From a virus, in IMG/VR virus record IMGVR_UViG_3300050821_015011: a stretch of DNA of 52,671 nt; one strand, given 5' to 3'. Within the stretch, counting starts at the first letter, position 1; the number at the start of each line of letters is the position of its first letter. Made by a program: the position numbers and the translations under genes. Under the pieces are notes generated by a model. It made no database searches. It was not told where the DNA came from and saw only the letters and a list, made by a program, of their open reading frames with translations. Shown here one piece after another: positions 7,789 through 51,015 of this stretch.

Positions 7789-8154
7789 ATGGGTCTGAAG
7801 CAGTACTACAACGGCATTGTCCAGCGGACGAAGTCGCGTGACTCGAAGACGCACATTCTCGTGGTGGTCAATGAGCAGTATGGAACGGATGACTCCGAGC
7901 GGGCTTCGACGATCTGCGAGGAGCACGGGTGGATCGTCTCCCACCGCAGCATCGGCATAGCCAAGAGCCACGCCCCCAAGCCGACTGAGTGGTGTGAGCC
8001 TTGCGCCGATGTGAAGGACGGCAAGTGCCGCGAGTGCGGCGAAGTCCCCGGCTGGAAGCCGTCTGGCAGGTACACCGATGGCGGACACTTGGTTCCTGGT
8101 ACCTGCGACTTCTGCAATAACCACTATTTGGATCTGGCGAAGGAGGAGTCGTGA
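7789..8154 (+). CDS. Cys-rich zinc-ribbon-like protein (121 aa)
   Basis: TCGTACAAC at 7775-7783, 5 nt before the ATG. CEPC..CREC..CDFC motifs. Confidence 0.5.
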   Translation: MGLKQYYNGIVQRTKSRDSKTHILVVVNEQYGTDDSERASTICEEHGWIVSHRSIGIAKSHAPKPTEWCEPCADVKDGKCRECGEVPGWKPSGRYTDGGHLVPGTCDFCNNHYLDLAKEES

Positions 8155-8555
8155 ACTACAAGCAGACAGCTCCCTGCGACCTTTGCCCTTTCCGTCGTGA
8201 CAGCAAGGGCCTGAGGCTGACGCCGGCCAGGGCTCGTGAATTCGGGCTAATGATGCTGAGCAACCCGGGGTCCGAGTTCGTCTGTCACAAGACGGCGAAG
8301 CTCGACGAGGACGAAGACGGCATCGGCGATTATGTGGATGCTGGAGAGGTCAGCGCTCATTGTGCTGGCGCGCTGATCTTTGCCGAAAAGAATGGCCGTG
8401 CTACCCAGATGATGCGCATCGCTGAGCGCCTTGGCATGTACGATCATAGAAAGCTAAAAGGTCACGAACAGGTCTTCGACAATCTCGACGAGATGGTGGA
8501 AGCTCAGGACAAGCCTCTGCCCAAGGCTCCGCGCCGCAAGAGATCAAAGAAATGA
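8151..8555 (+). CDS. hypothetical protein with CxxC plus basic tail (134 aa)
   Basis: GTGA overlap. CDLCPF..CHKT. Confidence 0.45.
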   Translation: MNYKQTAPCDLCPFRRDSKGLRLTPARAREFGLMMLSNPGSEFVCHKTAKLDEDEDGIGDYVDAGEVSAHCAGALIFAEKNGRATQMMRIAERLGMYDHRKLKGHEQVFDNLDEMVEAQDKPLPKAPRRKRSKK

Positions 8556-8791
8556 ACCGAGCCGAACTAAAAAAGCTTCGTCATGCCTTCAAGGCCGGCG
8601 ATATCATCACCTGGGGATTGGGCCGGATATCCCACAGGGTGCTTGAAGTCCGAATGGACGGAGTAGTGGTAGATGCCACGTCTGCTGGCTTCGGGAAGCT
8701 TTTTGTATCGTTCGACAAGAACAATCGCGATCCAAATGGGCGTGGCCCCATTCGTCACTCGACTGATGAACCAGACAAGAAAAGGCCGTAA
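8552..8791 (+). CDS. hypothetical protein (79 aa)
   Basis: ATGA overlap, operon context. Confidence 0.4.
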   Translation: MNRAELKKLRHAFKAGDIITWGLGRISHRVLEVRMDGVVVDATSAGFGKLFVSFDKNNRDPNGRGPIRHSTDEPDKKRP

Positions 8792-8826
8792 TGCGTCATT
8801 TGCCCATTCGTAGAACGGTCCAGGAG

Positions 8827-9510
8827 ATGACGATGAGCAAGCATATCGACACGGTCAAGCGCATCTTCAAGGAGCTGAGCGATAGGCACTTCAGCTCTGA
8901 GGAGTACCGCCAGCTCAGCTTTCATCCGGCCAAGGAGTGGCGCGGTCCGTATGGCGAAGGCGCAGACTGCACCGTCGTTATCGAGTGTGGCTTGTGGCAT
9001 GGCGCGATCAACGACGGCACCTTTGGCTGGCGCCCGCACACCGATCTCAATAAGACGCTGGCGCAGGCGGGCTTACAGTACGAACAGGGCACTGCCTGCA
9101 CGCTTCATATCTACGAAATGGATCTCAGCGAAAAGGCCGCGTATGAGCGCCGCAAGTCCGATCCGCTTCCTCTGCCGCCGAAGATGCCGGAGGGCTACAA
9201 GACGCTCCCAGAGTCCTTGAAGCAGCCGATGGAGCTGTGGCAGGCGGGTTTGCTCCCGCTGCCCACCGAGTACATTTCCTTCCACAACAACATCGCCGAG
9301 GAGAAGCTGGCGAAGCTGCCGCTTCAGGCGGTCATCAAGAAGTGGGTTGCCAGCGATGGCTGGTTGGACGGGATGCGCGTTCTCCACGCCAAGGTTGTCA
9401 CGAACAGCGACAAGGTGCTGACGCTCATCTATCACGACGGCAACCAGAACTTCATGGTGCAGTCGCCTTCCGGCGGCGCCGTTGCTCTCCACGACGAAGA
9501 CATCAAGTAA
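8827..9510 (+). CDS. hypothetical protein (about 227 aa)
   Basis: Motif-1 variant tcgtagaac at 8808-8816, then caggag Shine-Dalgarno, then ATG 8827. Confidence 0.5.
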   Translation: MTMSKHIDTVKRIFKELSDRHFSSEEYRQLSFHPAKEWRGPYGEGADCTVVIECGLWHGAINDGTFGWRPHTDLNKTLAQAGLQYEQGTACTLHIYEMDLSEKAAYERRKSDPLPLPPKMPEGYKTLPESLKQPMELWQAGLLPLPTEYISFHNNIAEEKLAKLPLQAVIKKWVASDGWLDGMRVLHAKVVTNSDKVLTLIYHDGNQNFMVQSPSGGAVALHDEDIK

Positions 9511-9540
9511 GTCAAGCTGCGTAATCAGTCGCCTCCTGCC

Positions 9541-9549
9541 TCGTACAAC
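9541..9549 (+). promoter_or_regulatory. motif-1 TCGTACAAC
   Basis: Followed by gggACAGGAGGcg and the ATG at 9563. Confidence 0.5.
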
Positions 9550-9562
9550 GGGACAGGAGGCG

Positions 9563-49154: not shown

Positions 49155-49424
49155 ATGAGCAACGCAGTCGATTGTGCGATGGCGAGATTTCATGCAAGAC
49201 TGGAACAGGTCCGTCGTAACACGAACATGGCACTACGATTGACGGTCCAGTATCGATGGAAGTTCGTCGCCAACCGGTACCAGGTGAGGGTATTCGCTGG
49301 TTGGCCTGGGAAGATCGAGAAGGTAGGGGAGCTGAATATCCCCGCCGATATCTGGTTCCCCTTTCGTACGACCCTCCAGAGCAGTCAGTGCTGTGCTGAC
49401 ATCGAAATCGTTGAAGACACGTAA
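49155..49424 (+). CDS. hypothetical protein (about 89 aa)
   Basis: Internal ATG of the 48846-49424 frame (MSNAVDC..). Confidence 0.35.
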   Translation: MSNAVDCAMARFHARLEQVRRNTNMALRLTVQYRWKFVANRYQVRVFAGWPGKIEKVGELNIPADIWFPFRTTLQSSQCCADIEIVEDT

Positions 49425-49440
49425 TCTCCTGATGTAGCCT

Positions 49441-49449
49441 TCGTACAAC
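49441..49449 (+). promoter_or_regulatory. motif-1 TCGTACAAC
   Basis: 4 nt before the ATG at 49454. Confidence 0.5.
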
Positions 49450-49453
49450 TAGC

Positions 49454-49738
49454 ATGTACATCAAGGTCGTCCGATACGGCGATGATATGCTGAGCGAGCG
49501 CGAATGGACCTTCATGATACTCGCGGAGCACAGCACGTTTATCGTCCGGCTCTGCCAGTATGAAGAACGAAGCCGTCCGAGCAAACGTCACAAGGTCAAG
49601 CTCACGGCGAAATACGATCGCCTGAATATGCGTGATTGTTCGATCAAGAAGCCACCTCCGGTGCCTCCCGATGTGGTGGCTGATGCCCACAGACAGATCC
49701 TTGCTTCCATTGTTTTCGACATCAACAAGGATCTCTGA
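49454..49738 (+). CDS. hypothetical protein (94 aa)
   Basis: TCGTACAAC at 49441-49449, 4 nt before the ATG. Confidence 0.5.
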   Translation: MYIKVVRYGDDMLSEREWTFMILAEHSTFIVRLCQYEERSRPSKRHKVKLTAKYDRLNMRDCSIKKPPPVPPDVVADAHRQILASIVFDINKDL

Positions 49739-49741
49739 ACC

Positions 49742-50506
49742 CTAACTGCGCGGCCGTTTCGGGCAACGATACGAGTGAGAGACCATCATTCCCCTTATGC
49801 TTGACTTGCCCCCGCAGTTATTACAACGAATGAATTTCTGGTCGCAGTAAGGGCAGGCTGCGAGCGCGTATGTTGGTGTTGTTCTAGTCCCGATCGGGGC
49901 CCCGCAACGATCGCACTTTACTGCGGTCATGTTTCTGAGCGTCGTCTTTGGGATCTTCCAGGCCATCGACATCTTTGGGGGTAAATCTGATGTGGTCGTC
50001 TTTGGTGCCGTGCGTTTGTCTTCCAGGTTCCCACGGCTAAGTACCTCTCTCCGAACCCCAGGCGTGATCGCAGCGGCCTCCAGGATCCGCTTACGTGCTT
50101 CACCAAGCAGACGTCGGCAAGAAGCCTCTTTCATTCCGAGTTCGTTGGCGATGTCTTTGTTTTCGAGACCCATTGTCCGCAGCCGACCAGCAACTGTCTG
50201 TTGTGTTGAGAGCACGTGGTAAAGATCAGGACGCAGTACAAGCGGGTCAGCTTCGTATTCGACCACAGCATTTGGGGATGGATCAGTCTCTCCCGCCATG
50301 GTCCGTTCTGCGCGGTTCAGATGAGCCTGGACGCGTGGCACCGGAATGTTGAAGTGCGCGCTAGTATCTCCCAGACTGTTGTTGAGATAATGATCCACGA
50401 TCTTCCACTGGGTGTCCGTGAGCATGCGGATTGACCCTGGATTGTTCGCAAGTAAGCGTTGCAGGCGTTTCTTCCGCGATGCATCGCTCGATAGATCAGA
50501 TTTCAT
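49742..50506 (-). CDS. putative transcription regulator with two sigma-70 region-4/LuxR-type HTH units and a C-terminal zinc ribbon
   Basis: LTDTQWKIVDHYLNNSLGDTSAHFNIPVPRVQAHLNRAER and LSTQQTVAGRLRTMGLENKDIANELGMKEASCRRLLGEARKRI. C-terminal CDRCG..CPYC..CNNCGG..C. Confidence 0.55.
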   Translation of the reverse strand: MKSDLSSDASRKKRLQRLLANNPGSIRMLTDTQWKIVDHYLNNSLGDTSAHFNIPVPRVQAHLNRAERTMAGETDPSPNAVVEYEADPLVLRPDLYHVLSTQQTVAGRLRTMGLENKDIANELGMKEASCRRLLGEARKRILEAAAITPGVRREVLSRGNLEDKRTAPKTTTSDLPPKMSMAWKIPKTTLRNMTAVKCDRCGAPIGTRTTPTYALAACPYCDQKFIRCNNCGGKSSIRGMMVSHSYRCPKRPRS

Positions 50507-51015
50507 TTTGGCAAAGCGTCGGAAGCCAGCTTCTGAAGGCGTGTGATGTACTGAGGCAAGGGCTCGGCTCCATCCCAGGCTGACTGCGAGATCTTGAGTA
50601 GAATCTCTTCCAGCTCGTAGATCCGCACCTTGAACGGGTGCAGATCCTCCTCATTGATGTCGGTGAGCGGAATCGAGATACTTAGGTGCAACTTCCCGTC
50701 GTCGTCGACCACGTCCGCCCGCCCATATTTCTCAGCATGAGCAATCGCGTCGGTCATACCAGCCTTATAGTCGTTGATATTGAATTTCTTCACTGGCGGT
50801 GGTGGACATTTGCAATGCCCGCACGGCTCGCATTTGCCGCATGTCGAACAGTACCTATGCGGTTCTCCCATGGTCTTCCATCCCAGGCAAGCAGGCGAGC
50901 AAAACTGAATCCACTCGCCGGTCGTATTGGTGGTATGGCCTATATGTGTAAAGGCTTTTTTGCAGATCGAGCAGATTTGGATCACTCGATTATGAAGGTG
51001 ATCCATTCCCCACAT
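50503..51015 (-). CDS. Cys-rich zinc-binding protein (170 aa)
   Basis: CSICKK..CSPAC..CSTCGKCEPCGHCKC. ATGA overlap. Confidence 0.45.
   Translation of the reverse strand: MWGMDHLHNRVIQICSICKKAFTHIGHTTNTTGEWIQFCSPACLGWKTMGEPHRYCSTCGKCEPCGHCKCPPPPVKKFNINDYKAGMTDAIAHAEKYGRADVVDDDGKLHLSISIPLTDINEEDLHPFKVRIYELEEILLKISQSAWDGAEPLPQYITRLQKLASDALPK

Follow-up and report, generated by a model that had tools for sequence, protein, structure and literature searches.

The viral record IMGVR_UViG_3300050821_015011 of IMG/VR comprises 52,671 nucleotides, which we shall call the window, meaning by this word the whole stretch of DNA that was analysed; these 52.7 kb, with a G+C content of 56%, are densely filled with small genes, among which 24 open reading frames (ORFs) spread between positions 7789 and 51015 encode proteins rich in cysteine. 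We may probably understand this set as a collection of independent, zinc-stabilised mini-domains: encoded in a large phage's accessory region, they would serve as binding modules. The original prediction had seen there an unusual expansion of paralogue-like zinc-ribbon proteins, forming a family of host-takeover factors. The open frames themselves have withstood analysis, all 24 existing at, or close to, where they had been placed, with several starts in need of correction. The idea of a family has not: judged by their profiles, the listed ORFs are unrelated families, not one expanded gene family. As for a role in host takeover, it would be plausible for accessory proteins of a large phage.

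The spacing of the cysteines carries the first part of the argument. Cysteine makes up 2.16% of the residues in the approximately 129 predicted proteins of the window (median length about 104 residues; gene set obtained with a self-trained codon model and gap filling), and CxxC occurs 55 times in them, when 1000 shufflings within each protein gave an expectation of 11.2±3.2 and a maximum of 23. Among the spacings that separate successive cysteines that of two residues alone deviates, with 55 instances for 10.3 expected. At least one CxxC is present in 30 of the 129 proteins, and at least two in 14 of them, as compared with 1.25 expected, while a glycine follows the second cysteine (CxxCG) in 19 of the 55 motifs, for about 4 expected from the frequency of this residue. 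A control was provided by the shadow frames, that is, 227 ORFs of at least 60 residues lying in frames other than those of the genes: their cysteine content, 2.66%, is above that of the gene frames, yet CxxC is found there 17 times for 16 expected, and none of these ORFs has two CxxC or more. The signal therefore belongs to the translated frames and not to base composition. The ORFs, named in what follows by the starts under which they were first listed unless a correction is indicated, are these:

7789-8154, plus strand: 121-residue protein; the N-terminal domain (residues 7-78) holds a putative C43-x2-H46 ... C69-x2-C72 site, and a lineage-specific C-terminal tail has two further CxxC (C80, C106).
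8151-8555, plus strand: 134-residue DUF6283 protein with one CxxC (C9, C12) plus C45 and C71.
12493-12972, plus strand: 159-residue protein, 9 Cys and 7 His; CRDCG at 37, CxxxC at 68, CPKC at 103.
18140-18568, plus strand: 142-residue protein, N-terminal knuckle pair C7xxC10 ... C43xxC46; the C-terminal region, long, rich in Lys and Arg and with a net charge of +14, we read as helical or coiled-coil.
21660-21974, plus strand: 104-residue four-Cys zinc-ribbon-like protein, C24xxC27 ... C70xxC73, with H75.
28461-28937, plus strand: 158-residue protein with two putative metal sites, C9xxC12-x9-C22xxC25 and H100/C104xxC107/C112.
30519-30860, plus strand: 113-residue protein from the start of the public gene call (121 residues from the GTG at 30495, hence 30495 in the text); numbered from 30495, ribbon-like knuckle pairs C14/C17...C52/C55 and C83/C86...C103/C106.
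33024-33548, plus strand: 174-residue protein, a gene in the public assembly; CxxxH (C30, H34), then CSKCG (C45, C48), with an acidic middle.
33550-33858, plus strand: 102-residue protein, called in the public assembly; Cx4C (C12, C17), CPKC (C53, C56), basic tail.
33855-34076, minus strand: possible 73-residue ORF with 7 Cys (CRFC, CPVCGKCQCG), the weakest of the list.
34137-34334, plus strand: 65-residue protein with 3 Cys, CxC and one further Cys, no CxxC.
34309-34686, plus strand: 125-residue protein, a public gene call; CSDCG (C85, C88), Cx6C (C107, C114); the earlier start, 34366, is internal to it.
34911-35333, plus strand: 140-residue protein, 10 Cys and 6 His; residues 33-103 remotely resemble the ribbon of 21660.
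36433-36663, minus strand: 76-residue protein; C35, H37, H41 plus C45xxC48-x16-C65xxC68.
39255-39509, minus strand: 84-residue protein with two N-terminal CxxCxGxG motifs, CIACAGRG and CGYCEGTG.
40128-40580, plus strand: 150-residue protein, N-terminal CQRCG (C6, C9)-x15-CxC (C25, C27).
42655-42993, plus strand: 112-residue protein, N-terminal C24/H26/C41xxC44 site and a second CxxC at residue 61; its start, 42646 at first, is corrected to 42655 or 42667.
42990-43292, minus strand: 100-residue protein, classical ribbon pattern CKECG-x15-CSVC (C49, C52, C68, C71).
43892-44152, minus strand: 86-residue protein (58 residues in the public call); HxxxCxxC, then Cx6.
44121-44723, minus strand: 200-residue protein, publicly called; 11 Cys, one CxxC.
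47092-47280, plus strand: 62-residue protein (80 residues from 47038, the public call); CEHCG (C4, C7), Cx5C (C33, C39).
48302-48646, plus strand: 114-residue protein, 12 Cys, four CxxC; worst codon score, -11.2.
49742-50506, minus strand: 254-residue protein; sigma-70 region-4 helix-turn-helix (HTH, residues 112-141), then three C-terminal CxxC (C198, C218, C228).
50503-51015, minus strand: 170-residue protein (167 in the public call), 10 Cys and 9 His; CSICKK...H and CSTCGKCEPCGHCKC.

That all of them carry multiple CxxC pairs, as had been claimed, is right for 14 (7789, 12493, 18140, 21660, 28461, 30495, 33855(-), 36433(-), 39255(-), 42646, 42990(-), 48302, 49742(-) and 50503(-)), where two knuckles and four Cys/His ligands are found. 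Nine more (8151, 33024, 33550, 34366, 34911, 40128, 43892(-), 44121(-) and 47092) reach this arrangement with a single CxxC and a variant knuckle, CxC, Cx4-6C, CxxxH or HxxxCxxC, and 34137, which has no CxxC, should be removed from the list. The expectation that the spacing of the cysteines would be compatible with metal-binding knuckles has been borne out, both by the enrichment in CxxCG and by Cys/His ligands that are invariant in seven independent families of homologues.

These families were obtained by searching 1.84 billion cluster representatives in full with HMMER, the query being a concatenation of ten of the ORFs (7789, 18140, 21660, 28461, 30495, 36433, 39255, 42655, 42990 and 48302). 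Nine of the ten were found there as called proteins, identical or nearly so (92-100%), and seven have homologues with conserved ligands, namely 7789, 21660, 28461, 30495, 36433, 42655 and 48302, while identical or near-identical copies alone were retrieved for 18140, 39255 and 42990. (Matches to the Serglycin model, seen in a Pfam scan of proteins joined through glycine–serine linkers, are spurious and have been disregarded.) In the case of 7789, present as an exact copy in the public protein library (P0123), C43, H46, C69 and C72 are invariant in 67 of 67 homologues, drawn from at least 67 cluster representatives; an AlphaFold2 model built with this alignment gives its N-terminal domain a predicted local distance difference test (pLDDT) score above 94, and the protein resembles uncharacterised proteins of uncultured Caudovirales in BFVD. 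Among 42 homologue representatives of 21660, C70 and C73 are kept in 42 of 42, C24 and C27 in 41 of 41 and H75 in 38 of 42. The three homologues of 28461 (36-44% identity) all retain H100, C104, C107 and C112, and the two that span the N-terminus retain C9, C12, C22 and C25 as well; the exact sequence of this protein is found in ENA contig ERZ27253726 k141_1782673 and in JGI 3300021479. For 30495 the four to six homologues (39-43% identity) almost always keep the knuckle cysteines that they span, two shorter ones lacking the second ribbon. All seven Cys/His ligands of 36433 are present in six of six homologues (43-50% identity), together with a QGVRxL motif; in 16 homologues of 42655 the counts are 14/16 for C24, 13/13 for H26, 16/16 for C41 and 15/16 for C44; and three homologues of 48302 (47-51% identity) keep C18, C21, C33, C36, C50, C63, C66 and an RPPF motif. 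As for 18140, its library copy is 99% identical (P0122), and no other homologue is among the matches listed.

Further witnesses of gene reality come from public gene calls, made on an identical contig and on a strain variant, which include 17 of the 24 ORFs, some with other starts, while for 7789 and 18140 the support comes from their exact or near-exact library copies; 33855(-) and 48302 were not called by that pipeline. The strain variant (7.2 kb, 98.5% identity) differs from the window mostly at third codon positions, and not one cysteine is changed. The protein encoded by 39255(-), whose gene overlaps each of its neighbours by 4 nucleotides, is identical in the variant; 40128, also called there with 150 residues, shows two synonymous and no non-synonymous changes, 42655 eight and three, and 42990, fast-evolving, six synonymous and eight non-synonymous changes, none at a cysteine; a 92%-identical variant of this last protein exists (P0128). 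As a separate observation, the segment 41402-43349 is a hot spot of strain variation, where fragment L014 is 96.5% identical, against 98.5% over the whole of the 7.2-kb variant contig; a 409-residue lipoprotein-like gene at 41402-42631 has there 27 synonymous and 10 non-synonymous differences from the variant contig.

Family models are much less eloquent than the ligands. Calling these proteins zinc ribbons or zinc fingers goes beyond what the models of Pfam and NCBIfam allow, as none of the listed ORFs reaches the curated cut-off of any such model: in Pfam, only 8151 (PF19800, 28.1 bits for a gathering cut-off of 27, with phrog_5443 at 3e-27) and 49742 (Sigma70_r4_2, PF08281, 27.0 bits for 25.7) attain a cut-off, and in NCBIfam none does. 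Below threshold, 33024 matches Zn_Ribbon_1, 50503 matches zf-FCS, and the best match of 42990 is the TFIIB-type Zn_Ribbon_TF (16.2 bits for 29). In the family of 21660, 9 of 43 members match Zn_ribbon_TFIIS sub-threshold, with other weak Zn_ribbon matches and one member fused to NUDIX, and its profile has weak matches in the PDB, to 1qyp (a ribbon of the RPB9/TFIIS type, 2e-4) and also to HypA, RPA12, eL42 and RpoP. The likeness to the zinc-ribbon superfold (TFIIS/RPB9, TFIIB, eL42/eS27, HypA) consists in two CxxC knuckles, a spacer of the size of a β-hairpin and four invariant cysteines, 42990 coming nearest to the TFIIB ribbon model; it differs in that no protein of the window reaches a curated cut-off and that the ribbon candidates have no confident structure. 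Similarly, the two consecutive CxxCxGxG of 39255(-) recall the DnaJ zinc finger (PF00684), but the score is 15.0 bits for a cut-off of 32.7 (E 0.031), there is one motif pair where DnaJ has four motifs, and neither the J domain nor the C-terminal domains are present. An unknown-function family, phrog_926, matches 33550 at 2.7e-8, and no match in the family models was found for 12493 or for 44121, which is not obviously a ribbon protein. Two likenesses were tried and not confirmed, that of 30495, in its layout of strands and knuckles, with MqsA/YgiT-type zinc fingers and that of 43892 with zinc-binding anti-sigma factors (ZAS): the H-NQT-C-EW-C of the latter is present, but neither has a Pfam or NCBIfam match at E≤1. 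Finally, a crude hydropathy check detected no strongly hydrophobic, signal-peptide-like N-terminus among the listed ORFs, so that secreted disulfide-rich proteins are unlikely.

How would such proteins work? Some 14 to 23 of the approximately 129 proteins would be independent small metal-knuckle proteins, each making two short turns (CxxC, often CxxCG, with the variants CxxH, CxC and Cx4-6C) separated by 7 to about 60 residues. These turns would present four Cys/His side chains chelating a single metal ion, for which Zn2+ is the most probable candidate, and two such sites would be present in several of the proteins. The metal cross-link would take the place of a hydrophobic core, allowing a chain of 60-160 residues to keep a stable shape, and this shape would offer a surface on which DNA, RNA or another protein could bind. 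That these sites have a structural role, rather than a catalytic or redox one, and that the proteins would act on macromolecules of the host or of the phage, is what we infer. The best illustration may be 49742, the sole listed ORF with a recognisable functional domain: because a sigma-70 region-4 HTH is followed there by three CxxC, ribbon-like, and because the gene is coupled to the Cys/His-rich 50503, with which it shares a 4-nucleotide overlap that probably implies translational coupling, it is likely to encode a transcription regulator. It is not a full sigma factor, as no region 2 was found in it and as the NCBIfam sigma70-ECF model scores 19.4 for a cut-off of 42.9, over region 4 only; it has no sequence match in the PDB.

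The density of these proteins was compared with that of seven other regions of about 50 kb each, using for all a single automatic gene caller in which cysteine codons had been neutralised, so that Cys-rich proteins were not penalised. In the following lines the percentage is that of proteins with at least two CxxC, followed by their number per 10 kb and by the cysteine content:

Window: 8.1% (10 proteins), 1.9 per 10 kb, Cys 2.1%.
Huge phage LR756502: 7.5%, 1.0 per 10 kb, Cys 1.35%.
T4 early region: 4.6%, 0.8 per 10 kb, Cys 1.27%.
LR756504: 3.3%, 0.4 per 10 kb, Cys 1.12%.
Mx8: 2.4%, 0.4 per 10 kb, Cys 1.49%.
LR756501: 1.7%, 0.2 per 10 kb, Cys 0.71%.
LR756500: 1.3%, 0.2 per 10 kb, Cys 1.14%.
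phiKZ: 0%, 0.0 per 10 kb, Cys 1.08%.

The ratio of observed to expected CxxC is 4.8 in the window, 4.2-4.7 in the knuckle-rich comparators (T4 4.5, LR756502 4.2) and 1.5-3.1 in the rest, and the chief distinction of the window lies in more cysteine and in more and smaller genes. To speak of an unusual expansion was an overstatement: the window does top this set, small as it is with its seven regions, but its nearest competitor stands at 7.5% against 8.1%, and the level described for haloviruses is similar. In large phages (T4, and the huge phages, reportedly those of Al-Shayeb et al. 2020) the early and accessory regions have in common with the window dense arrays of small ORFan genes, promoters of their own and a minority of Cys-knuckle products; they differ from it by a cysteine content of 0.7-1.5%, against 2.1%, and proteins with at least two CxxC are, per kb, about twice as frequent in the window as in the richest of them.

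The density had also been likened to that of archaeal viruses, which agrees with the literature, since in the halovirus Hardycor1 CxxC is found in 10 of 53 predicted proteins, to be compared with 30 of 129 in the window, and since CxxC proteins of haloviruses are small, common, and encoded mostly outside the assembly module (PMC7911831). In Haloferax volcanii, 43 of 282 µ-proteins have two C(P)XCG motifs (PMC10716476), and the window resembles them in favouring CxxCG. Common to both worlds is an abundance of small hypothetical proteins that carry a CxxC or two, mutually unrelated in haloviruses. They part in that the element of the window is bacterial in every recognisable feature, that its proteome is not acidic, and that similarity to the models of HVO_0758 and HVO_2753 is sub-threshold only. 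That unrelated CxxC proteins crowd together in viral accessory regions was known before, from haloviruses and, at lower density, from T4 and huge phages, and what we describe is no new kind of system; the window presents it at high density, in an uncultured bacterial element, with several uncharacterised families and with one fold, confidently predicted by modelling, that has no solved match. Besides its 2.16% of cysteine, the proteome is apparently rich in tryptophan (1.94%) and histidine (2.68%).

Besides the small size of the comparator set, several points weigh against the interpretation as zinc-stabilised modules of a large phage. The sole confident model, that of 7789, has no fold match in the PDB, so that 'zinc ribbon' cannot be claimed for this protein, and the single-sequence AlphaFold2 model of 30495, with a pLDDT of 45, is uninformative. 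Neither 44121, with one CxxC for 11 cysteines, nor 34137, with none, follows the knuckle pattern. The deep search for homologues covers 10 of the 24 ORFs, and among the other 14 the coding evidence for 33855(-) and 12493 is weak: the former has a coding score of -5.7 and, as only support, a Cys motif of 14 residues common to 50503(-), while the coding score of the latter is poor and its start uncertain (GTG at 12493 or ATG at 12550). Lastly, in the approximately 62 kb that were read there is no gene for a capsid, a portal or a tail, nor a clear one for a terminase, and for this reason the label 'phage' rests on accessory-gene similarities.

This last point brings us to the nature of the element. 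In the parts compared (18461-38937 and 41407-52671) the window is 100% identical to the ENA metagenome contig ERZ27253726 k141_1782673 (94,087 bp), which comes from a soil-type metagenome and continues for at least 9 kb past the window with, again, small ORFan genes; identical fragments are present in another ENA sample, in JGI 3300021479 and in one Logan run. Scans of the window for tRNAs and for Rfam families gave no match. Its recognisable proteins, few in number, comprise a homologue of the major vault protein (MVP), a HerA/FtsK-like ATPase, a cREC_REC domain, a NUDIX domain, a response-regulator receiver, a Fis-type HTH, a TPR protein, an SMC-like P-loop protein, an amidohydrolase, a cytidylyltransferase and the sigma-70 region 4 protein. 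The first of these, within the gene of which the 94-kb contig terminates, is the following:

18-2558, minus strand: MVP homologue of 846 residues, with MVP shoulder and Vault_3 domains.

About 14 genes of the window match PHROG families, none of them structural, and three proteins have homologues in jumbo phages of Caulobacter, Pseudomonas and Xanthomonas and in large Bacillus phages, to which may be added the MVP homologue, 40% identical to genes of LR756500 and LR756501, huge-phage records of 462 kb and 735 kb deposited under the name 'uncultured phage'; a parallel drawn earlier with jumbo viruses is upheld to this extent, a few genes being common to both. When 21 further Cys-rich ORFs were compared by tblastn with 50,697 deposited phage genomes, 6096, 8151 and 51834 alone found matches, those of 8151 being in Pseudomonas phage nickie, in a Paraglaciecola virus and in a Bacillus phage. 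Megablast of the window against deposited phage genomes gave no match, no related locus turned up in viral contigs for MVP, HerA, the 40634 protein or the 28461 family, and the last of these, searched in metagenome contigs, gave nothing either. That the host is a bacterium follows from ribosome-binding sites of the GGAGG type, from the sigma-70 region 4 and Fis-type domains, to which a response-regulator receiver may be added, and from two lipoprotein-like N-termini (a lipobox, with a cysteine behind a hydrophobic leader), as judged from the translations.

One may ask whether the element, instead of being a phage, would be a plasmid, conjugative element or chromosomal island from a bacterium like the Myxococcota, its Cys-rich proteins being ordinary small regulators. 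The lack of structural genes would fit, as would the ATPase, which is of the HerA/FtsK/TrwB type, and the MVP homologue, about 54% identical to chromosomal proteins of Myxococcota. Against this stand matches to PHROG families restricted to phages, to jumbo-phage genes and to Caudovirales proteins of BFVD, tiny ORFan genes that follow one another in long co-directional arrays, with a compact promoter for each gene, and a G+C content of 56% where the Myxococcota loci compared have 70-72%. We hold such an origin to be improbable, if worth keeping in mind, and we read the element as a large tailed phage, the host of which may be a soil bacterium like the Myxococcota. MVP, a vault-shell protein that large phages would carry, is also the sole clue to this host.

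What the cysteines hold is a second matter. Zn(Cys)4 and Fe(Cys)4 cannot be told apart from sequence alone, and some or many of the sites might be iron-sulfur clusters, rubredoxin-like iron or redox-active dithiols, in redox sensors or thiol-disulfide exchangers. Indeed, 50503 has a CxxCxxCxxCxxCxC that fits a loose WhiB-like spacing, 44121 and 34911 are rich in cysteines outside CxxC pairs, and a cupin encoded at 47780-48292 matches a PHROG annotated as cysteine dioxygenase. Yet the models of thioredoxin, glutaredoxin, ferredoxin, WhiB and rubredoxin gave no match at a useful score, and the dominant pattern has two knuckles, a glycine after the second cysteine and mixed Cys/His ligation, a combination that is the signature of structural zinc. 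A redox or iron chemistry is for us rather unlikely, and zinc-stabilised modules are still what we would favour.

Could these modules have a common origin? A lineage-specific expansion of one zinc-ribbon host-takeover gene, diverged past easy recognition, is very hard to sustain. It would account for the uneven distribution of the listed ORFs, 18 of the 58 genes beyond 30 kb but 6 of the 71 before (Fisher p=0.0013), and for three pairs in which profiles align with a probability above 80%; there is, by contrast, no significant clustering along gene order in a nearest-neighbour test (p=0.5-0.7). All-against-all blastp and phmmer comparison of the whole proteome showed the Cys-rich ORFs to share nothing more than the 14-residue motif of 33855(-) and 50503(-) (E 3e-4), the only convincing pair of paralogues being 20510-20722(+) and 52196-52669(-) (36% identity over 58 residues, phmmer 1e-9), neither of which is Cys-rich. 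In a profile comparison of the 24 ORFs with hhalign, using family alignments where at hand, 273 of the 276 pairs fell below 80% probability, nearly all of them far lower, and the three others are matched over short Cys motifs: 21660/34911 at 89% over 64 columns (blastp E 0.029), plausibly a true remote pair, 30495/42655 at 86% over 38 columns, and 33855/50503 at 82% over 18 columns. Ligand sets, spacings and flanking conserved motifs vary between families, with C4 in 21660 and 42990, CHCC in 7789 and 42655, CHH+C4 in 36433, two sites in 28461 and 30495, CxxCxGxG in 39255 and an HTH with knuckles in 49742; and the homologues retrieved from metagenomes fall into separate families of widely differing size.

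It is hardly credible, finally, that the ORFs would be chance open frames in DNA of 56% G+C, or that the count of CxxC would mirror a high cysteine content, for if the poor codon scores of 48302, 33855(-) and 30495 (-2.2), the two ORFs uncalled by the public pipeline and the still higher cysteine content of shadow frames speak for it, shadow frames have no excess of CxxC, shufflings that preserve cysteine content yield 11.2 of them, homologues with invariant ligands exist even for the uncalled 48302, strain substitutions track codon phase, and the listed ORFs occupy gaps of the gene map, often with 4-nucleotide overlaps; for the 24 ORFs taken together an artefact is largely disproved, 33855(-) and 12493 staying doubtful as genes.

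Understood as metal-stabilised modules, these proteins carry a lesson for annotation. Gene callers that rely on codon usage systematically under-call Cys-rich micro-proteins, witness the conserved 48302, missed by the public pipeline, and with the test of CxxC spacing, combined with the control of shadow frames, such genes can be recovered at little cost. The window would yield about 20 compact, probably metal-stabilised binding modules, seven of them with conserved families of unknown function; we would look upon them as candidate factors of host interaction or regulation, and as possible new folds of small zinc proteins. Three further Cys proteins stand outside the earlier list:

27898-28113, plus strand: 71-residue protein, publicly called, with CRFC and C21.
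38825-39031, minus strand: 68-residue protein with a C-terminal CFACG.
51834-52079, plus strand: 81-residue protein with CSHC, matching the unknown-function phrog_19191 at 3e-13, with homologues in Gordonia phages.

The window is also marked by a bipartite promoter-like element, GTAAT-16 nt-(T)CGTAYAAC, with 28 sites that are nearly always close upstream of a gene and co-oriented with it; its core, CGTAYAAC, occurs 25 times for 0.96 expected. Examples are:

7752-7783, 15712-15743, 28107-28138, 44769-44800 and 51370-51401, plus strand: promoter-like sites.
37098-37105 and 37983-37990, minus strand: promoter-like sites.

At about half of the sites an ATG lies 5-6 nucleotides past the motif, which implies leaderless mRNAs, and at most of the others a GGAGG is found slightly further downstream; the TAA within GTAAT often serves as stop codon for the gene that precedes. 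ORF 7789 has a site of its own, GTAAT-N16-CGTACAAC, with the ATG 5 nucleotides downstream of it. A scan of IMG/VR with the promoter pattern gave 12 single matches, at chance level and without protein similarity, and no IMG/VR contig has the promoter-like element in common with the window. As a speculation to which we grant a small chance, a large soil-phage lineage may, independently of haloarchaeal viruses, have grown dependent on metal-stabilised micro-proteins, to the extent of a tenth to a fifth of its accessory proteome, including undescribed zinc-binding domains such as the widespread N-terminal domain of 7789, some of these proteins (e.g. 49742) reading the GTAAT-N16-CGTAYAAC promoters that belong to the element, apparently leaderless in half of the cases.

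Two further observations may be added. Domains of the type that is frequent in bacterial conflict or signalling systems are encoded at 6096-6467(+), 7333-7758(+), 13690-14043(+), 9563-10846(+) and 31160-31834(+), and at 16247-16465 of L012; the set comprises a cREC_REC domain with a CPCPC motif, NUDIX, a stand-alone receiver, the HerA/FtsK-like ATPase, the SMC-like P-loop protein and, just outside the window, Multi_ubiq, and these might be genes of phage counter-defence or signalling. At 3912-4079(-), a protein of 55 residues has the prepilin-type N-terminal methylation motif LSGFTLLEML, with a sub-threshold match to the N_methyl model of Pfam (E 0.006).

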